Source: Candidatus Nomurabacteria bacterium (GTDB lineage: Bacteria > Patescibacteriota > Minisyncoccia > Phycocordibacterales > UBA9973). Taken from it: 62,813 bases of DNA. This document shows positions 16,686-62,813 of the stretch, piece by piece. The position numbers and the translations under genes were made by a program. The DNA lies in the NCBI GenBank assembly GCA_943359365.1, contig CALRHG010000001.1:1-62813 (forward strand), written 5' to 3'. Numbering within the stretch: position 1 is the stretch's first letter; the number at the start of each line of letters is the position of its first letter. The notes under the pieces were generated by a model. It saw only the letters and a list, made by a program, of their open reading frames with translations. It did no database searches and was not told the DNA's origin.

Positions 16686-17267
16686 ATGTCTGATGAAGAA
16701 ATTAAAAAAGAACCTGAAAATATAGCTTCGGAAGAGGAAGTTGTTGAATTCGAATTCAACGAAGACGGCGAGGAGGACTTGAAGAAGACTCTCAAGAAAT
16801 TGCGGGAGGATTTGAAGACGGCTAAAAAGGAGAAGGAAGAATATTTGACCGGCTGGCAGAAAGAGCGGGCGGATTTTGCTAATTACAAAAAAAATGAGGA
16901 GGACAGAAAGGCAATGGTTTCGGAAGCCATGCGCGAGCGGATACTTGCGAAATTTTTAGGAGTTATCGACAGTTTCAACATGGCTTTTGCCAACAAAGAG
17001 TCTTGGGAGAAAGTAGACGAAAATTGGCGGAAGGGTGTGGAATACATTTACGGGCAGATGAATACCATCTTCGAAGAATACGGAGTCAAAGGTGTGGGCG
17101 TTGTCGGCGAACGATTTGATCCGAATATTCACGAGCCGGTGGAAATGGTTGTGACAGACAAAAAAGAACTCGACCACACAGTCGCTAGCGTCATTCAAAA
17201 AGGCTACAAGCTCGGCGAGCGTATTCTGCGTCCGGCGAGGGTGAATGTTTACGAGCTTAAAGAGTAA
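16686..17267 (+). CDS. grpE: nucleotide exchange factor GrpE
   Basis: Acidic N-terminus, coiled-coil region (RERADFANYKK) and a C-terminal FDPNIHEPV...GYKLGERILRPARV. Confidence 0.9.
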   Translation: MSDEEIKKEPENIASEEEVVEFEFNEDGEEDLKKTLKKLREDLKTAKKEKEEYLTGWQKERADFANYKKNEEDRKAMVSEAMRERILAKFLGVIDSFNMAFANKESWEKVDENWRKGVEYIYGQMNTIFEEYGVKGVGVVGERFDPNIHEPVEMVVTDKKELDHTVASVIQKGYKLGERILRPARVNVYELKE

Positions 17268-17273
17268 AAGTCT

Positions 17274-17301
17274 ATTCTAATATTCTATAGAATTATAGAA
17301 T
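17274..17301 (+). promoter_or_regulatory. 28-bp four-hexamer palindrome (promoter/operator), copy 1
   Basis: ATTCTA-AT-ATTCTATAGAAT-TA-TAGAAT. The TAGAAT at 17288-17293 ends 6 nt before ATG 17300. Confidence 0.6.
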
Positions 17302-18976
17302 GAAAAAAGAAACCAAAAATTGTCAGAATTGCAAACAAGACTTCACAATCGAAGCTGAAGATTTCAATTTCTATGAAAAAATAAAAGTACCGGCTCCAAT
17401 CCTATGCTTTAAGTGCCGCCAGCATCGCCGATATGCTTGGCGAAACGAGCGGAATTTGTATCGGAGGAATTGCGATTTGTGCGGGAAGTCCACAGTAACT
17501 ATTTACTCTCCAAATAAGCCTTACAAAGTCTATTGTCACGATTGCTGGTGGGGCGACGGCTGGGATTTTACTTCTTACGGAAGAGATTTTGATTTTTCTA
17601 GACCGTTTTTTGAACAGTTCTCAGAGTTACAACATGAGGTTCCCCGCATGGCTCTATTAAATAAAAATAGCGTAAATTCCGAATACACAAACCACTCCGG
17701 AAATAATAAAAATGTTTATCTTTCTTTCTCCACTTTTGACGGGGAAAACATTATGTACAGTACTTGGATTATGGAAAATTCTCGGGATTGCATGGATTGC
17801 AGTTTTATTTATGAAAAAGGGGAACGTTTATATGAGGTTACTGACTCCCGAACATCCTATCAATGCCAGTACGGCATCTTTCTAAAAGATTGCTCTAATT
17901 GTTTATATTGCTACGATTGCCGCGGCTGCAACAACTGTTTTATGTCGACTAATTTGCGCAATAAAAGTTATGTTTTTAAAAATAAACAATATTCTCGAGA
18001 AGAATATCTAATTAAGATGAAAGAATACGAAATGTCTTCTTTTGCAACCCGGCAAGGCCTAGAAAAAGAATTTCAGGATATGATAGAGCAAAATGCTATC
18101 CATCGTTATGTCATAAGCGAGAGGAATGTGGATTCTCTTGGCAACCTTCTTTATGACTGCAAAAATGTAAAACAATCTTTTGAGGTTACAAGGGTAGAAG
18201 ACAGCAAGTACATATATGGAGCCATCGATGCTAAAAACTGTATGGATCTTTACCATGTGGGGCTAAATACTACTGAACTTTGCTATGAGCTGCAGGGTTG
18301 TACGAGAGTGAGCAACTGTCAATTTTGTCATCTATGTTATGACAACATGAATGTGCAATATTCCGACACCTGCCAAAACAGCCAAAATCTTTTCGGCTGT
18401 GTCTCGGTGAAAAAAGGCGAGTATCTTATTTTCAATAAAAAATATAGCAAAGCCGACTATGAATCTCTGAGGGAAAAAATTATCGAGCACATGAAAAAAA
18501 CAGGGGAGTATGGAGAATTTTTCCCTCCAGAAATCGCGCCGGTGTATTACAACGAGACGCAAGGCAATTTGTATATGCCCCTGACTAAAGAAGAAGTTTT
18601 AGCCAAAGGCTGGCATTGGGAGAATAATGTTCTGGGAACTTTTAGCAGAGAAACTATTTCTGCTGCAAAAATTCCGGACAAAATAGAAGATGTGCCGGAC
18701 TCTTATTTAAGCGAAATCTTTGCCTGCGCAAGCTGCTCCAAAAATTACAATATCACTAAGAATGAGCTATTGTTTTACAAAAAAGAAAATATTTCTCTTC
18801 CGCGAAAGTGCCCCAATTGTCGCTATAAACGCCGTTTCGACCTGCGACCAAAGAGGGAACTATGGCACAGAAAATGCATGAAGGCTGAATGCAAAAATGA
18901 ATTCGAAACTTGCTATCCGCCGGAATTCGCTGGGAAAGTTTACTGCGAGAAGTGTTATAACCAAGAAGTGTACTAA
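17300..18976 (+). CDS. Cys-rich multi-zinc-ribbon protein, family member 1
   Basis: 558-aa ORF. The N-terminal module (CQNCKQDF..FYEKIKVPAPILCFKCR..NCDLCGKS..VYCHDCWW) and the C-terminal module (CASCSKNY..LPRKCPNCR..VYCEKCYNQEVY) are related. The centre is rich in CxxC. Confidence 0.85.
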   Translation: MKKETKNCQNCKQDFTIEAEDFNFYEKIKVPAPILCFKCRQHRRYAWRNERNLYRRNCDLCGKSTVTIYSPNKPYKVYCHDCWWGDGWDFTSYGRDFDFSRPFFEQFSELQHEVPRMALLNKNSVNSEYTNHSGNNKNVYLSFSTFDGENIMYSTWIMENSRDCMDCSFIYEKGERLYEVTDSRTSYQCQYGIFLKDCSNCLYCYDCRGCNNCFMSTNLRNKSYVFKNKQYSREEYLIKMKEYEMSSFATRQGLEKEFQDMIEQNAIHRYVISERNVDSLGNLLYDCKNVKQSFEVTRVEDSKYIYGAIDAKNCMDLYHVGLNTTELCYELQGCTRVSNCQFCHLCYDNMNVQYSDTCQNSQNLFGCVSVKKGEYLIFNKKYSKADYESLREKIIEHMKKTGEYGEFFPPEIAPVYYNETQGNLYMPLTKEEVLAKGWHWENNVLGTFSRETISAAKIPDKIEDVPDSYLSEIFACASCSKNYNITKNELLFYKKENISLPRKCPNCRYKRRFDLRPKRELWHRKCMKAECKNEFETCYPPEFAGKVYCEKCYNQEVY

Positions 18977-18980
18977 GTCT

Positions 18981-19008
18981 ATTCTATAATTCTATAGAAT
19001 ATTAGAAT
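18981..19008 (+). promoter_or_regulatory. 28-bp four-hexamer palindrome, copy 2
   Basis: ATTCTA-TA-ATTCTATAGAAT-AT-TAGAAT. The TAGAAT at 19003-19008 ends 6 nt before ATG 19015. Confidence 0.6.
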
Positions 19009-19014
19009 GAAATT

Positions 19015-20706
19015 ATGAAAACCGAAATAAAAAACTGCCAAAATTGTAAAAAAGATTTCGTAATAGAACCGGACGATTTTGGATTTTACGAAAAAATCAA
19101 AGTACCTCCGCCGACTTGGTGCCCGCAATGCAGAATGCTGCGCCGGTTAAACTGGCAGGGGTACCGCATATTTTACAAAAGAAAATGTGATTTTAGCGGA
19201 GACTCAATTTTGAGTACATATCACCCGGATTCCCCGTACAAAGTCTACCGCCAGGATATATGGTGGAGCGACAAGTGGGATCCGAAAACTTACGGTAGGG
19301 ATATAGATTGGAACAAGCCTTTCTTAGAGCAATTTAGGGAATTAATGATCGAAATTCCGCACGCTTCTTTGGCTACGGAATACTCCACGATGCTTCGCAG
19401 TGACTATTGCAATGCGGCATCGGAATGCAAAGACTGTTATCTTTGTTTTCGCATTACCACAGGAGAGAATAGTGCTTATCTGAACACCGTTGTTGATGCC
19501 AAGCAATGCTTTGATTGTTCCTTTTTAAATCACTCAGAACTTTGTTATAGCTCCGTAAATATCAACAAATGCTACCAAGTATTTTTTTCACAAGACTGCA
19601 CCGAATGCCATGGTGTTTGGTTTTCGCGTGATTTAGTCGGGTGTTCGGATTGCGTAGGCTGTATCAATTTGCGAATGAAACAATACTGCATTTTCAATAA
19701 ACAGTACACAAAAGAAGAATATCAGAAAAAGTTGAAAGAATTTGATTTTGGCATACTGGCAAATGTGCAAGCTTTCAAGCTGCAGGTGGAAGAATTTATG
19801 AAGAAGGAGCCTAGAAAGCATTTTCATGGATTAAAAAATGTAAATGTTTCTGGAGAATATATTTCTAATTCCAAAAATGTACACGATTCGCACATGCTCG
19901 CAAACGGGCTAGATTTGCGTTACTGCCAATTTTTGAAAAACGGGCCTGCGTCTTCTTCGTATGATTGGACGCTGTTTGGTGATAATTCCGAGTTGATGTA
20001 CGAATGCGGCTGGTGCGGACTCGATTCGAGTAGCGTTAAATTCAGCGCGTGGAATTATTTTAATCTCAATATTGAATACTGTTTCGGTTGCCATCATTCT
20101 AGGAATTCGTTCGGCTGTACCAACCTGATAAAATCCGAATATTGTATTTTAAACAAACAATACACCAAAGAGGAATACGAGAAGCTAATTCCAAAAATAA
20201 AGCAGCACATGGTAGATATGCCTTTCAAAGACAACAAGGGAAGAATATATAAATATGGGGAAATGCTGCCGGCAGAATTTTCGCCTTGGTGTTACAACGA
20301 ATCGACAGCTTATGAATGGTTTCCGAAGACTAAAGAGGAAGCGGTTCTTCAGGGTTTGAAATGGCGCGAACAGGATTCTCATGAATACAAAGAGGCGACT
20401 ATGGAAATACCTATCCATATCAAAGATGTCAAAGACGATATTTTAAATGCGATTTTAAGATGCTCAGGTTGCGTAAAAAATTACCAAATTATACAAAAGG
20501 AGCTAGACTTTTTGCGGCAAATGAATTTGCCGATTCCGCGACAGTGCCCTTTGTGCCGAGACCGTGCGCGCCTGAAATTATTGAACCCTATTGCTGTTTA
20601 TGACAGAAAGTGTGCAAAATGTGATAAAGAAATTAAAACTTCGTATGCTCCAGACCGACCAGAAATCGTTTATTGTGAAAAGTGTTATCAACAAGAGGTT
20701 TATTGA
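19015..20706 (+). CDS. Cys-rich multi-zinc-ribbon protein, family member 2
   Basis: 563-aa paralog that ends ..IVYCEKCYQQEVY. The second N-terminal zinc knuckle is degenerate (KCDFSGDS, VYRQDIWW). Confidence 0.85.
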   Translation: MKTEIKNCQNCKKDFVIEPDDFGFYEKIKVPPPTWCPQCRMLRRLNWQGYRIFYKRKCDFSGDSILSTYHPDSPYKVYRQDIWWSDKWDPKTYGRDIDWNKPFLEQFRELMIEIPHASLATEYSTMLRSDYCNAASECKDCYLCFRITTGENSAYLNTVVDAKQCFDCSFLNHSELCYSSVNINKCYQVFFSQDCTECHGVWFSRDLVGCSDCVGCINLRMKQYCIFNKQYTKEEYQKKLKEFDFGILANVQAFKLQVEEFMKKEPRKHFHGLKNVNVSGEYISNSKNVHDSHMLANGLDLRYCQFLKNGPASSSYDWTLFGDNSELMYECGWCGLDSSSVKFSAWNYFNLNIEYCFGCHHSRNSFGCTNLIKSEYCILNKQYTKEEYEKLIPKIKQHMVDMPFKDNKGRIYKYGEMLPAEFSPWCYNESTAYEWFPKTKEEAVLQGLKWREQDSHEYKEATMEIPIHIKDVKDDILNAILRCSGCVKNYQIIQKELDFLRQMNLPIPRQCPLCRDRARLKLLNPIAVYDRKCAKCDKEIKTSYAPDRPEIVYCEKCYQQEVY

Positions 20707-20712
20707 TTGGCT

Positions 20713-20743
20713 AATTCGTACGAATGGGTAAATAGAGAAATTA
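20713..20743. repeat. conserved ~30-nt element containing the palindrome ATTCGTACGAAT, copy A
   Basis: TAATTCGTACGAATGGGTAAATAGAGAAATTA recurs almost unchanged at 51641-51671. Confidence 0.7.
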
Positions 20744-20775: not shown

Positions 20776-21324
20776 TTACTTTCCAAAAGTCTCAAATAAA
20801 AACTTTTTCGTTTCTTCGTCTACGAATTCGGTGACTATGATCATCATCTCGGTGGTGAGACCGAGATCTTTTTTTATATTCGTGAACAGATGTTCAAAAG
20901 GGAAAGGGGAGATCCACGCGGAATTTTTCAGGCAGACGAAACCGGCTTTCTTTAGTAGGTAGCGTAGGCTCTCGCGCTCGCTTTTTCTGTTCTCCGGCAG
21001 ATCGAGCAAAATAATTCTCCAAAATCCGTCCCAAGTGGTGTTTACGAGTGTTGTATCGCTATCTAATTTTAAACTATGTACTTTTTTTCTGCCTTCTTTG
21101 GTCAGGCGGGCGTATTCATTTTGCGGAGAGGAGACATGCTCTATCAATCCTGCTTCTTTGAGGCCTTTTAGAGAGCGAGTTACGGCATATGAATTTTTGC
21201 TCCCCTCCTTGTGGAGGAGGGGGCTGGGGGTGGTGATTTGTTCTTTAATTTCCGGCAAAGAAACAGCACTTTTTTCGCCTAAAATCTTTAAAATTTTGTT
21301 CGAATAGTCTTTCCTGCTTGACAT
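20776..21324 (-). CDS. winged-helix transcriptional regulator, PaaX-like
   Basis: N-terminal wHTH (AVTRSLKGLKEAGLIEH), then WDGFWRIILLDLPENRKSERESLRYLLKKAGFVCLKNSAWISP, which resembles the PaaX middle domain. Confidence 0.55.
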   Translation of the reverse strand: MSSRKDYSNKILKILGEKSAVSLPEIKEQITTPSPLLHKEGSKNSYAVTRSLKGLKEAGLIEHVSSPQNEYARLTKEGRKKVHSLKLDSDTTLVNTTWDGFWRIILLDLPENRKSERESLRYLLKKAGFVCLKNSAWISPFPFEHLFTNIKKDLGLTTEMMIIVTEFVDEETKKFLFETFGK

Positions 21325-24031: not shown

Positions 24032-26179
24032 ATGGAATTACCCGAAATACCTTTCAATAAAGACCTGACATATATTGGGATTACGACATATCGGGACAAG
24101 AATCAGCTTTTTGGCATCAAGCGCAAAGACAGGCGCCAGCATGTTTACATGCTCGGAAAGTCCGGTACCGGTAAATCCGTGCTGATGTTTAATATGATTA
24201 TCCAGAACATTCGAAACGGCGACGGAGTCTGCATGGTGGACCCGCACGGAGAAAATGTCGAAGCGGTTCTCTCGGCTATTCCACCGGAACGCATCAAGGA
24301 CGTCGTTTATTTCAACCCCGCTGACGCCGAGCACCATATTGGATTCAATGTTCTCGAATTGATCGATCCTCAGTACAAGCATTTGGTGGCGTCCGGCCTC
24401 ATGGGAATTTTCACGAAAATTTGGGCGAACGCTTGGAGCGCCCGCATGGAATATATTTTGAACAATGCAATTCTCGCCCTTCTGGACACTCCGGGCACCA
24501 CACTCCTCGGCATTCCGCGCATGCTTGTGGACAAAGATTATCGCCAGAAAATAATTTCCAATTTGAAAGACCCTGTCATCAAAGCTTTCTGGGTGCACGA
24601 GTATGAAGCTTGGCAGGATAAATTCCGAAACGAAGCCATCGCGCCGATTCAAAACAAAGTCGGGCAGTTTCTCTCTACAAGCATAATTCGAAATGTCGTC
24701 GGCCAGTCGAAGAGCACGATAAATATTTTCGACATGATGAACGACGGCAAGATTTTCTTGGTAAACGTTTCCAAGGGGCGCATCGGCGAAGACAACTCTG
24801 GACTGCTCGGAGGCATGATCATCACTAAAATTCAGCTGGCGGCCATGGAGCGTGTGCGTATTCCGGAAGAACAGCGCCGAGACTTTTATCTTTTCGTCGA
24901 CGAATTCCAAAATTTCGTGACGGACGCTTTTGCTGGCATTCTTTCGGAGGCTCGTAAATACAGATTGAACCTGACGGTGGCGCACCAATATACAGCCCAG
25001 CTGGTGGTGGACAAAAGTTCGGCGGTGCGCGACGCAGTTTTCGGCAACGTGGGCACGACGATAGTTTTCAGAGTTGGCGCCGACGATGCGGAATTTTTGG
25101 AAAGTGAATTCGAGCCGGAATTTACTCCGCTAGACATATTAAACCTGCCAAACTACAAGATTTATATAAAACTAATGATAGACGGCGTGACCTCCCGCCC
25201 TTTTTCCTGTAAAACTTTGCCTCAGCTGGTAAAGTCCGGCGATAAAAAAGTTGAAGATGAAGTTATCCGCTCTTCACGCGCGCTTTATTGCCGGCCGAGG
25301 GAAGTGGTAGAAAGGGAAATCAACGACTGGAGCGGAATGTCTCTCGGTGATGACACCTCGAGCGGATCCGGAGCCCTGGAGAAATTTCCCACAGTATGCT
25401 CGCTCTGTAAAAAAGAAACGACGGTGCCGTTCAAGCCGGAGCCGGGGCGCCCAGTGTACTGTAAAGAATGCATTGCGAAAATAAAATCCGGCGAAGTAAA
25501 AGTTGAAAAGGGAAGAGAAGACCAGATCAAGTACGATGAGTCTACTTTTTTCAAACCATTGGCTGATCTGGGCATAGAATTCGAACGAAAAGATCAAGGC
25601 AAAGATGCGAAAAGCGAAACAGCAAATCGCTTTCCGGAAAGAGTAAATAAGCCTAGTATCGTCGGAGCTATTAAAAAAGTCTTCAAGTCCGCTAAACCAG
25701 CAGGTTCGCTTGGTGGTTTGGTCGTCAAGCCCGCTCCCGCGCCGATTATAGCCAAAGCAAATATCGCTACCCCTCCACCAATTCCGCCAAAAGTAGTTAT
25801 CCCTAAAAAGCCCCCAGCAAAAGACAATATAGCCTTAAGAGAAATTTTAAATGAAACACTGAAAGCCGAGGTAGAAAAGCCTATCCCGGTGCCGGAACCA
25901 AAAAAAGAAATTGTGCCGCCTGTACCCCCAGTAAAAGCGCCGGAGCCGATTTCACTTGATGCTCTCAAAAATAAAATCAAAGAACCTACGCAATCAAAAG
26001 ACCGCGCTGCGAGCCATGAGGACATGAATAAATTGAAGAATTTGATTGCGGAGAAAATCACCACTCCAGCTAAAGCCACTCCTCCTCCAAAAGGAGGGGA
26101 AGAGACTCCTGCGCCAACCCCAGTTCCTAAAAAGCCAAAAGAAGTTCCGGAAGACGTCTTAAGAAAAATTTTAGAGTAA
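24032..26179 (+). CDS. T4CP/TraD-VirD4-like P-loop ATPase with a C-terminal zinc ribbon and a Pro/Lys-rich tail
   Basis: Walker A LGKSGTGKS, Walker B FYLFVDEFQNF, ARKYRLNLTVAHQY. Zinc ribbon CSLCKKETTVPFKPEPGRPVYCKEC (25397-25471). No N-terminal TM segment. Confidence 0.75.
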   Translation: MELPEIPFNKDLTYIGITTYRDKNQLFGIKRKDRRQHVYMLGKSGTGKSVLMFNMIIQNIRNGDGVCMVDPHGENVEAVLSAIPPERIKDVVYFNPADAEHHIGFNVLELIDPQYKHLVASGLMGIFTKIWANAWSARMEYILNNAILALLDTPGTTLLGIPRMLVDKDYRQKIISNLKDPVIKAFWVHEYEAWQDKFRNEAIAPIQNKVGQFLSTSIIRNVVGQSKSTINIFDMMNDGKIFLVNVSKGRIGEDNSGLLGGMIITKIQLAAMERVRIPEEQRRDFYLFVDEFQNFVTDAFAGILSEARKYRLNLTVAHQYTAQLVVDKSSAVRDAVFGNVGTTIVFRVGADDAEFLESEFEPEFTPLDILNLPNYKIYIKLMIDGVTSRPFSCKTLPQLVKSGDKKVEDEVIRSSRALYCRPREVVEREINDWSGMSLGDDTSSGSGALEKFPTVCSLCKKETTVPFKPEPGRPVYCKECIAKIKSGEVKVEKGREDQIKYDESTFFKPLADLGIEFERKDQGKDAKSETANRFPERVNKPSIVGAIKKVFKSAKPAGSLGGLVVKPAPAPIIAKANIATPPPIPPKVVIPKKPPAKDNIALREILNETLKAEVEKPIPVPEPKKEIVPPVPPVKAPEPISLDALKNKIKEPTQSKDRAASHEDMNKLKNLIAEKITTPAKATPPPKGGEETPAPTPVPKKPKEVPEDVLRKILE

Positions 26180-26184
26180 AATCT

Positions 26185-26212
26185 ATTCTAAAATTCTATA
26201 GAATTATAGAAT
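26185..26212 (+). promoter_or_regulatory. 28-bp four-hexamer palindrome, copy 3
   Basis: ATTCTA-AA-ATTCTATAGAAT-TA-TAGAAT. The TAGAAT at 26199-26204 ends 6 nt before ATG 26211. Confidence 0.6.
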
Positions 26213-27998
26213 GAAAAAAGAAACAAAAACAAAAAACTTTTCGTGGCTGGATACGATAAAGGCCTTTTGGTATTTTTTAGATAAAGATAAGCCGAAATTT
26301 ATTTTCGCATTCTTTATTCTTTTGGTAATTTTCTTTTATGATTTTATACCAGTATTTGTTTTAGGAAAAATTTTAGATTTCTTTAATTCGTATAAAGACG
26401 GACAGTCGCTTTCAATTTTTTATTCTTATGTCATTTTTCTAAGCGTTACATACATAATAGCTTCGCTCATTCGATTAAAAAGCAAAAATATTTTAAATAG
26501 AACAGGATTTCATACTCGCACCAGAGCCAGAGTCTGGGGATTTGAGCGGTTGACTGAATTTTCTTTGGAATGGCACAACAAAGAAAATACCGGCAACAAG
26601 CTTCAGAGGATTTTTACCGGCGCGGATGGGGTACGAAATCTGCTCAAGTTGTTCAGCAAGGATTTATTAAAAACCTTTGTCAACATTGCCGGCGCAATCA
26701 TATTTTTTTTATTCACAGATATAAAATTTGTCGCGCTTATTTTGATTTACGGCGCACTCTTTTTCTATATAGAATTTACTTTTAGCAAGAAAGTTTTTGC
26801 TTTCAGCAATGAATTTAATGAGATGAATCAAAAGGCCAGCGGCGCATATATGGAAGGGGCAAGTAACATGCTTTCTATAAAAGCTCTTGGCGGGGAGGAG
26901 GCGATAGCGGGGCGTGTTCTAGATAAAGAAACTCTTTCGCGCGATATTGCAATAAAAAAGACAAATGCTACTAATTTAAAATGGCGCTTTTTTCAGATTT
27001 TAAACGGCGTCAGTCTAGGAATTTTCCTTCTTTTACTTGGTTCCTCAGTAATTTCTCACACAATAACTCTCGGAATGATGCTTGTACTGTATAGTTACTA
27101 TAATGATAAATTCCGAAAGTCACTGGAAGAGATTACTGATTTGCATTCTGATATGATAGATTTTCGGTCAGATATTAGCCAGATGATGCCCATATTCAAA
27201 GAAACTGAATTCATAAAAACAGGCAACGAAAGTTTCCCGAAAGACTGGAACAAGATTGAAATAAAAAATGCGGTGATGGATTATGGCTCAGGGCAAAAAG
27301 GCCTCAATAATTTTAATTTAATACTAAACAGAAATACTAAGACAGGTATTGCCGGAATATCCGGTTCGGGCAAATCCACGCTCGCAAAAATTATCTTGGG
27401 ATTGTATGCGCTCAAGGAAGGAGAATTTAAAATAGGGAAAGAAAATAATATGAAGAATTATTATTCAATTTCTCATAATGAAACGCTAGGCAATATTACA
27501 GTCGTTCTGCAAGAGACGGAGCTTTTCAATCTTTCTTTGCGGGAAAATATTACGATGATGCGTCCCGAAAATAAAGACCTTTTAGATATGGCAGTAAAAA
27601 TTTCTGAACTAGATAAAGTAATTAATAAACTTCCCGAAGGCCTTGACGCTCTGATAGGCGAAAAAGGATATATGCTTTCCGGCGGCGAACGCCAGCGCCT
27701 TGGGATTGCCCGCGCGATTTACAAAAATGCGCCGATTATTATTTTAGATGAAGCGACTTCCTCGCTTGATTCGGAGACTGAAGGCAAAATAATGGAGAAG
27801 CTCCTGGGCGAATACGGCAAAGATAAAACTTTCTTAATTATCGCCCACCGCTTGGGAACTTTGAAGTATACTGACAATATCGCCGTGATGGAGAGAGGAC
27901 AAGCGGTCGAAGAGGGAAGCTACGAAACGCTGATGAACGATAAAAAATCAGTTTTTTATAGATTAAATAAAGAAAAGAAAAATGAATCAAGAATGTAA
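26211..27998 (+). CDS. ABC exporter, fused permease/ATPase
   Basis: Six-helix TMD, Walker A GISGSGKST, signature LSGGERQRLGIARA, Walker B IIILDEATSSLD. Confidence 0.9.
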   Translation: MKKETKTKNFSWLDTIKAFWYFLDKDKPKFIFAFFILLVIFFYDFIPVFVLGKILDFFNSYKDGQSLSIFYSYVIFLSVTYIIASLIRLKSKNILNRTGFHTRTRARVWGFERLTEFSLEWHNKENTGNKLQRIFTGADGVRNLLKLFSKDLLKTFVNIAGAIIFFLFTDIKFVALILIYGALFFYIEFTFSKKVFAFSNEFNEMNQKASGAYMEGASNMLSIKALGGEEAIAGRVLDKETLSRDIAIKKTNATNLKWRFFQILNGVSLGIFLLLLGSSVISHTITLGMMLVLYSYYNDKFRKSLEEITDLHSDMIDFRSDISQMMPIFKETEFIKTGNESFPKDWNKIEIKNAVMDYGSGQKGLNNFNLILNRNTKTGIAGISGSGKSTLAKIILGLYALKEGEFKIGKENNMKNYYSISHNETLGNITVVLQETELFNLSLRENITMMRPENKDLLDMAVKISELDKVINKLPEGLDALIGEKGYMLSGGERQRLGIARAIYKNAPIIILDEATSSLDSETEGKIMEKLLGEYGKDKTFLIIAHRLGTLKYTDNIAVMERGQAVEEGSYETLMNDKKSVFYRLNKEKKNESRM

Positions 27999-29643
27999 AA
28001 AATGCAAACAGGGTTTCACTTTAGATAAAGACGATCTAGGTTTTTACGAAAAGATGAAAGTTCCGCCGCCCAAAGTCTGCCCGGATTGTCGCTTTAAAAT
28101 GCGCGCGATGTTTCGCAATGAAACGACGCTTTATTCCGGGCGCAAATGCGCTCTTTGTGAAAAGAGTATTGTTTCCATGTTCAACCCCAAAGCCCCTTAC
28201 ACTGTTTATTGTTACGATTGTTTTTATTCTGAAAAATGGGATCCGAAAGAATATGCTATGGATTATGACGAAAACAGACCTTTTTTAGAACAATTTGGCG
28301 AGTTATTAAAAAAGGTTCCTAAGATCACATTGTATCTCAACGCGGCGGACGGAAAAAATTTAAATAGTGAATATGTAAATATGGCTGGCGGTCTGAAAAA
28401 TTGCTATCTGGTTTTTAATACAAGCCCATCGGAAGATTTGTTATATTCGAGAGGCGTCAGGCACGGAAAAGATGCTTCGGATATATATTTCGGTACCCAT
28501 CTTGAGCGGTGCTACGAATGCGTAAATGTGCAACAGTCCGCAGGGATACTTTTTGGCAAGAATGTCACCGGCTCAGTGGATTCAGCTTTTCTTGTGAATT
28601 GCCGGGGCGTAATAAATTGTTTCGGTTGCGTTAACTTAAACACCAAGTCGTATTATTTTTTAAATCAGCCGATACCGCCGGACGAGTACAAGAAAAAAGT
28701 GAACGAAATTCTGGGGTCTTACGAAAAAATTCAGGAATTCAAAAAAGAATTTGAAAAATTTGTTCTTAATTTTCCGATGCGGGAGAACAACAACCTCAAG
28801 ACTGTCAACTCAACCGGGGATTATCTGTTTGAATGCAAGAATGTCAAGGATTCTTTTGAAGTTACAGGAGCGGAAGATTGCCGTTATCTTTTTTCTTCAA
28901 AAGAGGCCAAAGATTCTATTGGCACCATAGGTTATGGCACAAAGTCGGAGCGAATGCTCGAAGTAGTGGCTACCGGCCTTTCGAGTAATATTATAGGCAC
29001 ATACGGTGCGGAAAATTGCAGCGATATTTTGTACGGATTTTTTATCAAAAATTGCAAGAGTTGCATTGCTTGCGACGGGCTAAAGAATGCGCAATATTAT
29101 ATTTTTAACAAACAATATACAAAAGAAGAGTACGAAAGACTGCGCGCAAAAATTATCGAAGAGTTAAAAGAAAAAGACTTATACGGATTGATCATCCCGG
29201 TAGAGCTTGCCCCTTTTGCTTACAATGAAACTATTGCAGAGGACAGGTTTCCACTTGCGAAAGAAGAAGCGCTAGCACAAGGTTTTCGCTGGGAAGATGA
29301 TATACAAAAGACGGAAGGAAAGGAGACAATGACACCGGAAAATATTCCGGATAATATAAAAGATATTCAGGATTCGATTACCAGCGAAATTTTAAGGTGT
29401 ATAGATTGCAATAGGAATTATAAAATAATCGCTCAGGAACTTTTATTTTACCGCAAAATGAATATTCCAATACCGCGAAAATGTTTCTATTGCCGTCACC
29501 AAGACCGTATCCTCCGCCGAGGGCCGTATAAATTCTGGAATCGCAATTGCGCGAAGTGCAAAAAGGAGATTATAACCAATTATTCCCCAGATAGAATGGA
29601 GATCGTGTATTGTGAGAAATGTTATCAGCAGGAGGTTTATTAA
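27982..29643 (+). CDS. Cys-rich multi-zinc-ribbon protein, family member 3
   Basis: 553-aa paralog that ends ..IVYCEKCYQQEVY. It overlaps the end of the ABC gene by 17 nt. Confidence 0.85.
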   Translation: MNQECKKCKQGFTLDKDDLGFYEKMKVPPPKVCPDCRFKMRAMFRNETTLYSGRKCALCEKSIVSMFNPKAPYTVYCYDCFYSEKWDPKEYAMDYDENRPFLEQFGELLKKVPKITLYLNAADGKNLNSEYVNMAGGLKNCYLVFNTSPSEDLLYSRGVRHGKDASDIYFGTHLERCYECVNVQQSAGILFGKNVTGSVDSAFLVNCRGVINCFGCVNLNTKSYYFLNQPIPPDEYKKKVNEILGSYEKIQEFKKEFEKFVLNFPMRENNNLKTVNSTGDYLFECKNVKDSFEVTGAEDCRYLFSSKEAKDSIGTIGYGTKSERMLEVVATGLSSNIIGTYGAENCSDILYGFFIKNCKSCIACDGLKNAQYYIFNKQYTKEEYERLRAKIIEELKEKDLYGLIIPVELAPFAYNETIAEDRFPLAKEEALAQGFRWEDDIQKTEGKETMTPENIPDNIKDIQDSITSEILRCIDCNRNYKIIAQELLFYRKMNIPIPRKCFYCRHQDRILRRGPYKFWNRNCAKCKKEIITNYSPDRMEIVYCEKCYQQEVY

Positions 29644-41212: not shown

Positions 41213-41512
41213 ATGAAACACAAAAATAAAAAAATTCCGGAATATAAGCATGAGCTGGTAGAAATTTTCTCCAAAATTCACGGAGATAAAAATTTTATGG
41301 CGGAATTTCTAAAGGATATTCTGACTCCGGCGGAATTCGAGACTATGGCTTTGCGCTGGCAAATAGTAAAAAAGATAGATAAGGGCGAGACTCACAGGTC
41401 CATAGCAGGGGATTTAGGTCTAGGAATAAGCACAGTCACCCGCGGTTCTCGCGAACTTCGCAACAAAAACGGCGGGTTTCATCTGATGTTGAAGAAACTC
41501 GGAAATAAATAG
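41213..41512 (+). CDS. Trp-repressor-like protein (TrpR / YerC-YecD family)
   Basis: LTPAEFETMALRWQIVKKIDKGETHRSIAGDLGLGISTVTRGSRELRN. It starts 2 nt after the trpS stop. Confidence 0.7.
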   Translation: MKHKNKKIPEYKHELVEIFSKIHGDKNFMAEFLKDILTPAEFETMALRWQIVKKIDKGETHRSIAGDLGLGISTVTRGSRELRNKNGGFHLMLKKLGNK

Positions 41513-51131: not shown

Positions 51132-51530
51132 TTACGAGCTCAAAAGCAACCCTTTGCTAAGTTTGGAAGAGTTACTATGATGGCTTGCTAATCTATTCAA
51201 AATCAAACGGTATCCGCCAAGCGAACCTTTGAGCCACTTAGCTATGCGGGCGATAGTGGCGGAAGAAAGACCAGTACTTTCGCTGATGGCGTTGTATTGC
51301 ACATCTTTGGAAAGGAGTGTTGCAGCTTCGAGACGATTGGCGAATTCTTTGATTTCGGCTTCGGTCATTAGGTCACGCAGAAAAAGCTTTGCCTCGTCGG
51401 GGCTTTTCAATTCTAAAATACCGGCAACAAATTGCTTGTTTATTCTCGCATTCCAGTCAATAACAGGTCCAATCTGCTGGACCATTTTGACTGTCTTTAC
51501 TCTTGTTTTGTCATTCATTCCTTTACTCAT
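51132..51530 (-). CDS. Trp-repressor-like protein (TrpR / YerC-YecD family), second copy
   Basis: FLRDLMTEAEIKEFANRLEAATLLSKDVQYNAISESTGLSSATIARIAKWLKGSLGGY. Confidence 0.65.
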   Translation of the reverse strand: MSKGMNDKTRVKTVKMVQQIGPVIDWNARINKQFVAGILELKSPDEAKLFLRDLMTEAEIKEFANRLEAATLLSKDVQYNAISESTGLSSATIARIAKWLKGSLGGYRLILNRLASHHSNSSKLSKGLLLSS

Positions 51531-51536
51531 TCCGAT

Positions 51537-51565
51537 ACTTTAGCAAACTAAAGTACTTTAGTCAA
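51537..51565 (-). promoter_or_regulatory. promoter with an embedded 14-bp palindrome for the second TrpR-like gene
   Basis: On the minus strand: TTGACT-N17-TAAAGT, then 6 nt, then ATG 51530. The spacer contains the perfect palindrome CTAAAGTACTTTAG (51548-51561). Confidence 0.55.
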
Positions 51566-51640
51566 GTAAAGTAACTGCCGAGGTGTGGATAACCCCGAAC
51601 CAGAGCAAGCTCGGTACGGGGCAGGCTTTTTCTATTGTCT

Positions 51641-51671
51641 TATTCGTACGAATGGGTAAATAGCGAAATTA
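51641..51671. repeat. conserved ~30-nt element containing the palindrome ATTCGTACGAAT, copy B
   Basis: TTATTCGTACGAATGGGTAAATAGCGAAATTA matches 20713-20743. Confidence 0.7.
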
Positions 51672-60193: not shown

Positions 60194-60949
60194 GTGGAAA
60201 ATAATGTTTATACTATAAAAACAACCGGTTTCGAGGGTCCGTTTGGAGTTCTTTTGGAACTGGTGGAAAAGCGCAAGCTTCATATAAATGATGTATCGCT
60301 CGCGGCGGTGACGGAAGACTATTTGAATCACATGAACAAACTCGGCGGCTTGAGCTCAGCGGAAATTGCGAGCTTTGTTCTGGTGGCTTCGACTTTGATT
60401 CTCATAAAGTCTAAATCTTTACTGCCTAATTTGAGCCTGACTTCGGAGGAAGAAGGGGATATAAAAAGCTTAGAAGAAAGATTGCGTCTATATGAATTTT
60501 TCACCAAGCTCGGAGGCAATGTGAAAAATATGTTCGGCGAAAAAATAATTTTCGCGCCACTTGAACGAAAAGCGGACACGATTGTATTTTTACCTGATGA
60601 GCAGATAACCAAAGACAGCATGATGGGTTTTGCCAAAAATGTTCTCGGCTCCATGCCCAAAAAGGTTTTCTTGCCGGAAGTCGAAGTGCGCAAGGTTATC
60701 AGCATTGAAGAAATGATAAACAACTTGACGGAGAGAATTAAAAGTTCAATCAAAATGAGCTTCAAAGATTTGCATGGCAAAATAGTCACTCGCGAAGAAA
60801 AAGTAACAGCGATAGTCGGATTTTTGGCGTTGCTGGAGCTTGTCAGACAGGGAGTTCTCGACGCTGTGCAGGAGATTGACGGGGGAGACATTATTATGGA
60901 AAAACAACAGCTTCCAGCGGTTGAACCGCTGGAAGCGACAAAAGTATGA
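60194..60949 (+). CDS. scpA: segregation and condensation protein A
   Basis: FEGPFGVLLELVEKRKLHINDVSLAAVTEDYL; GTG start. Confidence 0.85.
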   Translation: MENNVYTIKTTGFEGPFGVLLELVEKRKLHINDVSLAAVTEDYLNHMNKLGGLSSAEIASFVLVASTLILIKSKSLLPNLSLTSEEEGDIKSLEERLRLYEFFTKLGGNVKNMFGEKIIFAPLERKADTIVFLPDEQITKDSMMGFAKNVLGSMPKKVFLPEVEVRKVISIEEMINNLTERIKSSIKMSFKDLHGKIVTREEKVTAIVGFLALLELVRQGVLDAVQEIDGGDIIMEKQQLPAVEPLEATKV

Positions 60950-61497
60950 ATTTAGAATCAAAAATAGAAGCAATATTATTTTGGAAAGGAGAGCCGATGT
61001 CGCGAAAAAAACTGGCGGAAGTTTTGAAGGCGGGGGAGGAGGAAATAAATTCTGGACTGGAAAAATTAAAAGAAAATTTGAAAAGCAGGGGAATAGTGCT
61101 GATGGAAAAAGGCACAGATATAATGCTTGGCACAGCGCCAGAGCTTTCGGAATTGATTGAGAATTTACAAAAAGAAGAACTAAATAAAGAACTTTCCAAG
61201 GCAAGTCTTGAGACATTGTCCATTGTGCTGTACAAAAACGGAGCAAGCAGGGGAGAGATAGACTATATAAGAGGTGTAAATTCAAGCTTCACCTTAAGGG
61301 CGCTATCCATCCGCGGGCTGGTGGAAAAAATTACGGATCCAAAAGACAACAGGCGATATATCTACAAGCCAAGCTTTGAACTTTTATCTTACATGGGCGT
61401 AAAATCGATAGAAGAATTACCGGACTATAGCGAAGTCAGTAATTCAATAAATATCGCGGCGAAGAATTTAGAGGAGGAAAGCAAAGAGGAAAATTAA
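60946..61497 (+). CDS. scpB: segregation and condensation protein B
   Basis: IEAILFWKGEPMSRKKLAEVL and tandem winged helices. It overlaps scpA by 4 nt. Confidence 0.85.
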   Translation: MNLESKIEAILFWKGEPMSRKKLAEVLKAGEEEINSGLEKLKENLKSRGIVLMEKGTDIMLGTAPELSELIENLQKEELNKELSKASLETLSIVLYKNGASRGEIDYIRGVNSSFTLRALSIRGLVEKITDPKDNRRYIYKPSFELLSYMGVKSIEELPDYSEVSNSINIAAKNLEEESKEEN

Positions 61498-61512: not shown

Positions 61513-61540
61513 ATTCTACAATTCTATAGAATTATAGAAT
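61513..61540 (+). promoter_or_regulatory. 28-bp four-hexamer palindrome, copy 4
   Basis: ATTCTA-CA-ATTCTATAGAAT-TA-TAGAAT. The TAGAAT at 61535-61540 ends 8 nt before ATG 61549. Confidence 0.6.
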
Positions 61541-61548
61541 AGAAAAAT

Positions 61549-62813
61549 ATGCAAAGTGAAACTAAAAAATGCCAAAATTGTAAAAATAATTTCGTCATCG
61601 AGCCGGATGATTTTGGATTTTATGAAAAGATTAAGGTGCCGGCGCCGACTTTTTGTCCGGAATGCCGACGGCAGCGGCGGAATGCTTGGCGAAATACTTT
61701 TACTTTGTATTCCCGAAAATGCGATTCTTGCGCGAAGTCTATTGTTTCTCTTTACGCCCCAGATTCCGGCATAACTATTTACTGCAACAAATGTTGGTGG
61801 AGCGATAAATGGGACGCGAAAAGTTTCGCGGTTGACTATGATTTTTCAAAACCATTTTTTACGCAGTTTCGGGAACTAGTAGGCAAGGTGCCGGTCATGT
61901 CTGTAGTAAATGACGACGGTATTGCCAGCGTGAATTGCGAGTATACTCAAGACTGGTGGTTCGCCAAGAATTGCTATATGTGTTTTTCCGGCTGGTATGT
62001 GGAAAATGTCATGTACAGTTTTTTCATACTCGCCGGCAAGGATATGATGGACTGCATGAATATCAGGACGAAAAGCGAATGGCTTTACGAGTGTTATATC
62101 ACAAGTTCATCGTATCAAGTTAAATATGCGCGATTTTGTTTAAATTGTTTGGATTCGCAATTTGTATACGATTGCTGGGATTGTAATAATTGTTTTATGT
62201 GTATGGGGCTGCGAAATAAAAAATATCATTTCCGGAACAAAGAATATTCAAAAGAAGAATATGAGAAGATTTTAAAAAGCTATCGGCTTGATACATTTTC
62301 CGGAACAGAAAAAGCTAAAAAAGAATATGAAGATTTTATTTTAAAATATCCGCGTAAATATTTACACAATTTTCGAAACACCGACAATGTCGTCGGGGAT
62401 GTCATTTCATATTGTAAAAATGTGAAAGACTGTTTTGTCGCCAAAGCTTCTGAAAACTGCAGATATTGCGATTTTATTGCCGATGACAAAGAATGCTACG
62501 ACATCGTGATGACGGGTGAGACTTCCGAGAGCTACGAATCGGCCACTATAGATCAATCCCAGCTCAATTTTTTCGGAGTTTTTTCGGTTAAAAATCAGGA
62601 TGTCAGGTACACCCAGCACTGCCATTCTTCGAAACATCTTTTCGGATGTGTGGGATTGCGCAATGCGAGCTATTGTATTTTTAATAAGCAGTACACCAAG
62701 GAAGAATACGAAGAATTAGTGCCGAAAATTATTGAGCAGATGAACAGCATTCCTTATAAAGACAAAATGGGAAATGTTTATAAATATGGAGAATTTTATC
62801 CGATAGAACTTTC
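61549..62813 (+). CDS. Cys-rich multi-zinc-ribbon protein, family member 4 (partial, runs off the window; absent from the ORF track)
   Basis: Manual translation gives MQSETKKCQNCKNNFVIEPDDFGFYEKIKVPAPTFCPECRRQRRNAWRN...CIFNKQYTKEEYEELVPKIIEQM.... It is open to base 62813 and collinear with members 1-3. Confidence 0.85.
   Translation, partial: MQSETKKCQNCKNNFVIEPDDFGFYEKIKVPAPTFCPECRRQRRNAWRNTFTLYSRKCDSCAKSIVSLYAPDSGITIYCNKCWWSDKWDAKSFAVDYDFSKPFFTQFRELVGKVPVMSVVNDDGIASVNCEYTQDWWFAKNCYMCFSGWYVENVMYSFFILAGKDMMDCMNIRTKSEWLYECYITSSSYQVKYARFCLNCLDSQFVYDCWDCNNCFMCMGLRNKKYHFRNKEYSKEEYEKILKSYRLDTFSGTEKAKKEYEDFILKYPRKYLHNFRNTDNVVGDVISYCKNVKDCFVAKASENCRYCDFIADDKECYDIVMTGETSESYESATIDQSQLNFFGVFSVKNQDVRYTQHCHSSKHLFGCVGLRNASYCIFNKQYTKEEYEELVPKIIEQMNSIPYKDKMGNVYKYGEFYPIEL

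Follow-up and report, generated by a model that had tools for sequence, protein, structure and literature searches.

A 28-bp palindrome at start codons in a Candidatus Nomurabacteria contig as the likely operator of an ArsR/SmtB-type repressor

A 62,813-nt stretch of DNA from a Candidatus Nomurabacteria bacterium (contig CALRHG010000001.1 of assembly GCA_943359365.1; the whole stretch is hereafter called the window) carries four copies of a 28-bp palindrome built of the hexamers ATTCTA and TAGAAT, which precede the transcription units of a Cys-rich protein family of ca. 560 amino acids. The palindrome is likely to be the operator of a winged-helix repressor of the ArsR/SmtB type, ca. 90 amino acids in length, and to overlap leaderless promoters. 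The regulator in question is conserved across Patescibacteria and most likely represses its own gene. From the comparison of sequences we infer physical binding, repression rather than activation, the transcription starts, and the presence of the regulator in this genome.

The palindrome and its four copies in the window

The sequence ATTCTAnnATTCTATAGAATnnTAGAAT was found exactly four times in the window, with starts at 17274, 18981, 26185 and 61513, when none is expected by chance. A search for the pattern ATTCTANNATTCTATAGAATNNTAGAAT with up to three mismatches allowed returned the same four sites only, all of them perfect, and no match was obtained in 100 dinucleotide-preserving shuffles of the window. 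The 12-bp core ATTCTATAGAAT was likewise confined to these places, even at one mismatch (0.32 expected). The original prediction, which was made from the letters of the window, had reported four identical copies at these coordinates and none elsewhere, and it was confirmed by the pattern search, the shuffles and the core search alike. In the 10 kb upstream and 3 kb downstream of the window, as read from identical contigs, no further copy of the motif was found.

Each copy is a 28-bp palindrome with 12–13 of 14 positions paired, and takes up almost all of the space that separates a start codon from the co-directional gene upstream, ending either 2 nt inside the start codon or 6–8 nt 5′ of it. 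Copy 1 stands 6 nt behind the grpE stop codon, and the ATG at 17300 takes its AT from the end of this copy. Copy 2, 4 nt after the stop of family member 1, reaches to within 6 nt of the ATG at 19015, copy 3 lies 5 nt after the stop of a TraG/VirD4-like gene and overlaps the ATG (26211) of an ABC gene, and copy 4 is found 15 nt after the scpB stop, with 8 nt left between its end and the ATG at 61549. Family member 3 starts (27982) inside the ABC gene, which ends at 27998. The gene positions agree with the claim that each copy stands directly before a family member or before the ABC gene overlapping member 3.

In every copy one TAGAAT hexamer ends shortly 5′ of the ATG, and the predicted distance of 6–8 nt was measured as 6, 6, 6 and 8 nt for copies 1 to 4. 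The arm nearest to the ATG is the inner one in copies 1 and 3, and the outer one in copies 2 and 4. A three-codon mini-open reading frame (ATG AAA TTA TGA, 19007–19018), to which attention had been drawn in copy 2, does exist and overlaps the ATG at 19015, but is probably incidental, because the real ATG follows the outer TAGAAT at 6 nt, a spacing as in the other copies.

Distribution of the motif in other genomes

Genome contigs, with one genome per species, were scanned for the exact pattern, which was present in more than 120 loci (a lower bound), nearly all of them labelled as metagenome-assembled genomes of Patescibacteria, or the Candidate Phyla Radiation (CPR). The labels include Nomura-, Campbell-, Wolfe-, Jorgensen- and Brennerbacteria, many records titled “Saccharibacteria”, and a few short contigs with other labels. 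Viral contigs gave no match to the exact pattern. Both the gene content of the window and all the related loci that were fetched indicate a Patescibacteria genome of the Nomurabacteria/Paceibacteria type. From the matches listed, 135 exact instances were analysed, and the counts out of 135 below refer to these.

Start codons clustered at −2 (17 cases) and at 5–9 nt (31 cases) from the end of the motif, and 24 positions of the motif were identical across more than 130 sites. The gene directly behind the motif encoded a member of the Cys-rich ca. 560-amino-acid family in 23 of the 135 instances, and a winged-helix protein of the ArsR type, ca. 90 amino acids long, in 12–13 instances. Other genes behind the motif were those for DHFR (4), IleRS-like synthetases (4), PurQ (2), M24 peptidase (2) and ABC exporter (2), with single cases of RibE, PGK, Fmt, SOD, nitroreductase, NDH-2-like, radical-SAM, MurD, EngB, RarA and other proteins.

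The original prediction had tied the motif to the Cys-rich family and had named a scatter over genomes irrespective of gene context as a sign of a generic promoter or repeat. Within the window the tie stands, as all four family transcription units carry the motif, although the motif is not private to the family; elsewhere in Patescibacteria it precedes many kinds of gene, at a fixed distance to their start codons. Family member 2 had its best match among GTDB representatives at 79% identity, which shows that the source genome is not one of them. Only about 4 of 74 unbiased relatives of this protein had an operator of the type described here, and different palindromes were present at others. 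The Cys-rich family was therefore rejected as a conserved core of the regulon, and is a lineage-variable target.

The order grpE, motif, family gene was conserved in several genomes (loci L014, L033, L093 and L113). Conserved in relatives is also the TraG/VirD4-like gene followed by the motif (26185 in the window), with a varying gene behind it: the ABC gene and family member 3 in the window, a family member in L068 (2877), and a DUF5674 protein in L030 (4018).

The ArsR-type regulator and its upstream operator

In a reverse test, 301 relatives of the regulator were collected from the genome collection, the best 80 of the 301 were kept, and their genes were searched, over the 130 nt upstream, for a palindrome in which 11 or more of 14 positions are paired. 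With automatic start calling, a palindrome of the same 28-bp architecture was present upstream of 64 of the 80 regulator genes, and on inspection of about 77, since most of the failures were start-codon miscalls with the palindrome visible by eye. Of random control windows, 105 of 1600 reached the same score.

The fold of the regulator, as taken from the related loci, was recognised by the Pfam model HTH_5 (29 bits against a cutoff of 22), and the NCBIfam model HTH_metalloreg scored 50.5 bits, under its cutoff of 55. A profile search against PDB returned HlyU as the best match (4k2e, E-value 2e-12, 88 residues), followed by CadC, NolR, CzrA and SmtB. Neither the Cys motif of the alpha3N metal site nor the His/Asp/Glu residues of the alpha5 site were conserved in the regulator alignments, and for this reason the protein resembles the non-metal members HlyU, SdpR and NolR. 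In public data the family comprises ca. 6,300 protein clusters, named “ArsR family”, “MarR family”, “winged helix-turn-helix” or “hypothetical”.

The closest relative among the fetched loci was assembly JBBUHH01, with 82% nucleotide identity in dnaK and in the TraG-like gene, and it encodes the regulator with an operator overlapping the ATG of the regulator gene. Four close homologues of the regulator (P0092, P0078, P0061 and P0007) were traced, and all came from other samples.

In four loci (L285, L290, L295 and L305) the regulator gene had a conserved neighbourhood in the order gatB, fructose-bisphosphate aldolase, regulator, one or two variable genes, and FAD-linked oxidase; in L290 this neighbourhood is followed by a gene for a PaaX_M protein. 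There was no gatB in the window.

Operator classes and the recognition helix

Upstream of the regulator genes the palindrome keeps its 28-bp architecture while the sequence varies by lineage, with both arms always changing together. Three main classes were distinguished on the basis of the core: class A with TTCTATAGAA, which is the type of the window, class B with TTCT(C/T)(A/T)(A/G)GAA, and class C with TTTTGCAAAA, as for example in ATGCTAGTGTTTTGCAAAACACTAGCAT. Rarer operator types had the cores TTCGTACGAA and TTCCGCGGAA.

In an alignment of 76 proteins, the operator class was tracked by only three columns with a normalised mutual information above 0.85. Residue 45 is Glu or Asp in class A, Asn in class B and Gly in class C; residue 51 is respectively Ala, Glu and Asp; and residue 86 is Val, Leu and Cys. 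Six further columns (36, 44, 46–48 and 77) reached 0.55–0.68, and most of the others held far less class information. Residues 45 and 51 are located inside the helix-turn-helix, where residue 51 stands before an invariant His; its counterpart in the alignment with HlyU is the Gln of the S-Q-H motif of the recognition helix.

A natural swap was found in L198, in which a class-B protein backbone with Asp at position 51 is combined with a class-C operator. The divergent “LERYFKG” subfamily has Ala or Gln at position 51 and keeps the class-A core. Covariation of this kind would be expected of a protein that reads this DNA, and the comparative evidence from related loci supports what the original prediction had proposed from symmetry, i.e. 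an operator whose regulator is itself symmetric.

The palindrome arms of classes B and C do not resemble a −10. There a distinct −10 comes after the palindrome, either TAGAAT or TAAAAT about 6 nt before the ATG, or TGnTATAAT, and the palindrome covers the spacer and −35 zone, outside the regulated transcript.

A second operator in the last nine codons of the regulator gene

In 75 of the 80 regulator genes, the last 27 coding nucleotides together with the T of the stop codon matched the gene’s own upstream operator at no fewer than 20 of 28 positions. This second copy was always in the same register (L071 and L122–L200, also L008, L050, L051, L076, L079 and L110). Class A proteins end in ILQFVRIIE, which is written ATTCTACAATTCGTTAGAATTATAGAAT and followed by AG, class B proteins in ILKFLRTLE (ATTCTCAAATTCTTGAGAACATTGGAAT, then AG), and class C proteins in ILVFCKRLQ (ATTCTAGTGTTTTGCAAAAGACTGCAAT, then AG). 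For the “LERYFKG” subfamily, overlap between the gene and an exact palindrome is limited to the last 5–7 nt of the former.

Relative codon entropy at conserved residues was 0.70–0.88 in the gene body, and in the last nine codons 0.00 in class A, 0.27 in class B and 0.24 in class C, which indicates that the DNA itself is constrained beyond the needs of the protein. Residue 86 varies by operator class because its codon lies in the operator core of the second copy; accordingly the sole class-specific Cys (position 86 in class C) is dictated by that core. In class A the next gene, encoding a family member, an FAD-linked oxidase, a NUDIX protein or a hydrolase, starts 8–17 nt after the second copy. 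On account of this distance the second copy probably serves as operator or promoter of the downstream gene, and it may cooperate with the upstream copy.

Leaderless promoters and the proposed mechanism

Only 7 of the 63 predicted genes of the window were preceded by a Shine-Dalgarno-like motif, and none of the four motif-preceded ATGs had one. When these four genes were excluded, a TAnnnT hexamer started exactly at −12 in 12 of 59 genes, compared with 0–5 genes at other offsets and a background of 0.018 per position. TAGAAT was the commonest TAnnnT hexamer at −12, and the −12 hexamer was present also at genes only a few bases from their upstream neighbour. Leaderless mRNAs, with roughly one promoter per gene, thus seem to be the norm in this genome. 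Because TAnnnT peaks 6 nt before the start codons of this genome, the TAGAAT arms are supported by their position as doubling as the −10 of leaderless promoters, in agreement with the original prediction. Transcription behind copy 1 is predicted to start on the A of the ATG (17300) or close to it, with promoter function deduced from hexamer position. A scan of the window for the sigma-70 −35/−10 consensus did not call the element, because the element has no −35.

In the Nomurabacteria-like lineage, the arms of the proposed operator would therefore also be good −10 hexamers, and with one arm 6–8 nt before the start codon, operator and core promoter of a leaderless or nearly leaderless mRNA would be the same DNA. 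One or two dimers of the bound regulator would keep RNA polymerase off the −10. Binding would in this way shut off three family genes and the operon of ABC gene and family gene together, and loss of binding would turn on all four units (Table 1).

Table 1. Proposed operator copies, putative −10 hexamers and adjoining genes of the window.
Feature	Position	Strand	Remarks
Proposed operator, copy 1	17274–17301	none	ATTCTAATATTCTATAGAATTATAGAAT; exact match; between grpE (16686–17267) and family member 1
Inner TAGAAT of copy 1, putative −10	17288–17293	+	Ends 6 nt before ATG 17300
Family member 1	17300–18976	+	558 amino acids; Cys-rich; weak treble-clef zinc-finger matches
Proposed operator, copy 2	18981–19008	none	ATTCTATAATTCTATAGAATATTAGAAT; exact match; between family members 1 and 2
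Outer TAGAAT of copy 2, putative −10	19003–19008	+	Ends 6 nt before ATG 19015
Family member 2	19015–20706	+	563 amino acids
Proposed operator, copy 3	26185–26212	none	ATTCTAAAATTCTATAGAATTATAGAAT; exact match; after TraG/VirD4-like gene (24032–26179)
Inner TAGAAT of copy 3, putative −10	26199–26204	+	Ends 6 nt before ATG 26211
Two-gene unit	26211–29643	+	ABC exporter-type permease/ATPase (26211–27998), then family member 3 (27982–29643); 17-nt overlap
Proposed operator, copy 4	61513–61540	none	ATTCTACAATTCTATAGAATTATAGAAT; exact match; after scpB (60946–61497)
Outer TAGAAT of copy 4, putative −10	61535–61540	+	Ends 8 nt before ATG 61549
Family member 4	61549–62813	+	Runs past window end; 564 amino acids in identical contig L121

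Weighing of the operator reading and its alternatives

Several observations weigh against an ArsR-type operator. Searches of the window by tblastn with ArsR-type proteins found nothing, the regulator was likewise not found in the adjoining 10 kb upstream and 3 kb downstream (identical contigs), and its presence in the source genome is assumed from relatives. Protein class and operator class both follow phylogeny, and hence the case for covariation rests on the concentration of class-specific columns in the helix-turn-helix and on a single clear case of a natural swap. The target genes are of many kinds and give no physiological theme for a regulon. In 45 of the 135 instances the palindrome is extended by 4–13 bp into the variable flanks, which protein binding alone does not explain. 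Outside the window, the commonest spacing places the outer hexamer 8–9 nt from the ATG, so that transcription would start 1–3 nt before the ATG and not on it.

Foremost among the alternatives, and still unlikely, is that the element is a promoter only, an array of −10 hexamers facing both ways that is read by RNA polymerase and sigma factor with no dedicated regulator. TAGAAT is indeed common among the −10-type hexamers of this genome, a start codon always adjoins the element, and in other genomes it precedes housekeeping genes; however, a promoter needs neither perfect two-fold symmetry nor four hexamers, and in other lineages the arms are not −10-like (e.g. ATGCTAGTGTTTTGCAAAACACTAGCAT) and a separate −10 follows. 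The palindrome moreover covaries with the recognition helix of one particular protein, and a copy is kept in the last nine codons of that protein with the synonymous sites frozen. A role in RNA, i.e. a read-through hairpin acting as a processing site (for example of RNase III), as a terminator or as a structure hiding the start codon, is to be ranked just behind and is quite improbable. All four copies lie 4–15 nt behind a co-directional gene, and read-through RNA would therefore contain them; furthermore, the two-nucleotide spacers are complementary in 69 of the 135 instances, the flanks are often complementary, and one near-copy (L055) has a compensated double change. In the window copies, on the other hand, the spacer pairs are not complementary, the hairpins are AU-rich and weak (predicted −6.6 to −8.1 kcal/mol, z −1.3 to −2.3), no T-run stands behind any copy, and a terminator scan of the window did not call them. 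The extended palindromes elsewhere are mostly without T-runs as well, and no Rfam family matched anywhere in the window at gathering score. A stem would tolerate compensatory changes, yet the 24 fixed positions hold throughout. Both the promoter-only and the RNA explanation are opposed by the location of the palindrome in classes B and C, upstream of the −10 in the spacer and −35 zone and outside the regulated transcript, which is a typical position of a repressor site.

That the palindrome is the operator of another regulator of the window, as the original prediction had suggested by naming a PaaX-like protein (20776–21324) and two TrpR-like proteins as candidates, is very unlikely, and the evidence favours the ca. 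90-amino-acid ArsR-type regulator encoded outside the window. The PaaX-like gene adjoins family member 2, an arrangement found also in one relative (L033), and a PaaX_M protein is encoded near the ArsR-type gene in L290; but none of the PaaX-like and TrpR-like genes has the motif upstream. The TrpR-like gene at 41213–41512 sits among trpS, trpC, trpE and trpG, and the one at 51132–51530 has a different palindrome of its own, CTAAAGTACTTTAG; none of the three proteins is supported as the regulator. Autoregulation, covariation and the self-encoded second operator speak for the ArsR-type protein instead. Least probable of all is a spreading or recombining repeat, either a palindrome resembling repetitive extragenic palindromic (REP) elements or miniature inverted-repeat transposable elements (MITEs), or a cassette boundary that shuffles the family genes. 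Genomes do hold several copies, family genes are flanked on both sides, the gene behind the TraG-like gene and motif differs between relatives, and long perfect palindromes with variable flanks occur. Against this stand the fixed position relative to start codons (−2 or 5–9 nt), the conserved order of grpE, motif and family gene, the lack of matches in viral contigs, and the lack of a visible target-site duplication at the four window copies; furthermore, the sequence is identical across many lineages of Patescibacteria, unlike REP or MITE families. Recombination between copies may take place as a side effect.

Comparison with known regulatory systems

Regulators of the ArsR/SmtB family have 12-2-12 inverted-repeat operators of ca. 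26–28 bp, on or next to the regulated promoter (PMC8790569). As in the SmtB-smtA, ZiaR-ziaA and AzuR-nmtA systems, the protein proposed here is a small dimeric winged-helix protein of the same fold, and the size of the operator (26–28 bp in SmtB/ArsR systems), and its symmetry are shared as well, as is probably, to judge from the distance to the start codons, its location at a promoter; for SmtB and AzuR, cooperative binding of more than one dimer has been described. The half-site differs, being TGAA..TTCA in the metal sensors and ATTCTA/TAGAAT here. Unlike the SmtB/ArsR metal sensors, the regulator has no conserved residues of the alpha3N or alpha5 metal sites, and its targets are, as far as visible, not metal transporters or metallothioneins. 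Two further differences from SmtB/ArsR systems are that the operator coincides, judging from its position, with the −10 of leaderless promoters, and that a second operator is located in the regulator’s own last nine codons.

HlyU of Vibrio, the best sequence match among solved structures, is a non-metal-sensing ArsR member of similar length, which acts mainly as an anti-silencer or activator at virulence promoters. A second operator within an open reading frame that cooperates with a promoter-proximal one is known from lacO2 in lacZ, galOI in galE and the internal operators of purR. Unlike these sites, the second operator described here has a fixed register at the end of the regulator’s own gene in 75 of 80 homologues, changes with the DNA-binding specificity, and appears to serve the next gene.

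Fur-type boxes consist of repeated AT-rich hexamers, direct and inverted, which overlap the −10, and repressor and polymerase compete for them. In comparison with these, the protein family is another one here, as are the hexamer sequence and the spacing, with an 8-bp period. The CIRCE/HrcA system resembles copies 1 and 2 in having a palindromic operator beside grpE/dnaK, with unrelated sequence and spacing, and CIRCE itself (TTAGCACTC-N9-GAGTGCTAA) gave no match in the window with up to three mismatches allowed. No description of the motif core in this sense, or of an ArsR regulon or operator in Patescibacteria, was found in the literature.

Possible significance for gene control in Patescibacteria

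To our knowledge, almost nothing is known of gene control in Patescibacteria, which have few regulators and either have not been cultured or are difficult to grow. No function is known for many of the proteins that are most abundant in them. A wider reading, put forward tentatively as a serious possibility, is that of a self-encoding regulatory module, possibly a main gene-control system of Patescibacteria, with the site written both in the promoter and in the last nine codons and stop of the regulator gene. If so, residues 45 and 51, the operator sequence and the C-terminal helix would have to change together, giving rise to lineage-specific classes. One genome would then hold paralogous regulator-operator pairs, each controlling different Cys-rich paralogues, and in the Nomurabacteria-like lineage repressor and sigma factor would compete for the same bases.

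The analysis offers a testable regulator-operator pair, a predicted two-residue specificity code against the operator core, and target sets for each genome. The enigmatic Cys-rich family of ca. 560 amino acids would be tied to a regulatory circuit, which gives a first handle on when these proteins are made. The last nine codons of the regulator gene would show with unusual clarity how one stretch of DNA can be protein code and regulatory site at once.

Other palindromes, hairpins and gene observations

A second conserved element, ATTG(G/T)CT(A/T)ATTCGTACGAAT(G/A)GGTAAAT with the perfect 12-bp core ATTCGTACGAAT, was present in the window at 20706–20733 and 51634–51661. One of these copies shares its first base with the end of the family member 2 stop codon, and in L121 (7257) the element similarly starts on the final stop-codon base of another family member; in L265 (365) it lies 8 nt before a family gene. 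The operator of another ArsR paralogue (L149) has this core, and a second such regulator-operator pair may therefore exist in this genome.

The perfect palindrome CTAAAGTACTTTAG is located at 51548–51561, 18 nt before the TrpR-like gene 51132–51530 (minus strand), with a partial repeat GCTAAAGTA nearby. Sites of the TACTTTAG type precede family genes elsewhere (L074 3190, L019 1386 and L280), and some family paralogues may on this basis be under a TrpR-like regulator. Still other paralogues (L006 3248, L018 7575, L227, L233, L239 and L244) had different perfect or near-perfect 28-bp palindromes, e.g. GTGAATTCTAGCATATGCTAGAATTCAC and ACTTGCTTATTTGGCCAAATAAGCAAGT, which hints that different family paralogues answer to different regulators. 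A G+C-rich hairpin, CCCCGAAC..(loop)..GGTACGGGG and then CAGG, precedes family genes in L041, L226, L243, L266 and L031; it was found once in the window (51593–51621) in opposite orientation, between the ATTCGTACGAAT element and the TrpR-like gene.

Among the extended palindromes, 34 of the 135 instances were extended by at least 5 bp (5–13 bp), up to perfect palindromes of 54 bp (L005, L017, L021, L028, L043, L062, L067, L081, L102 and others). The intergenic regions of extended sites were longer (median 124 against 66 nt), and mostly without T-runs. As few had T-runs, a function as bidirectional terminators was not supported; the extension may be due to template-switch symmetrisation around a long perfect palindrome or to cruciform formation.

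The class I synthetases of the IleRS type encoded behind the motif (L088 4587–8000, L098 3–2474 and L099 5984–7999) carried an inserted histidine-phosphatase domain (His_Phos_1) amid the catalytic domain. The protein encoded at 129–1157 of the window, and in L282, was identical to a record in NCBI assembly GCA_964949345.1 (contig CBBQRI010000034.1) and in ENA ERZ27280297.

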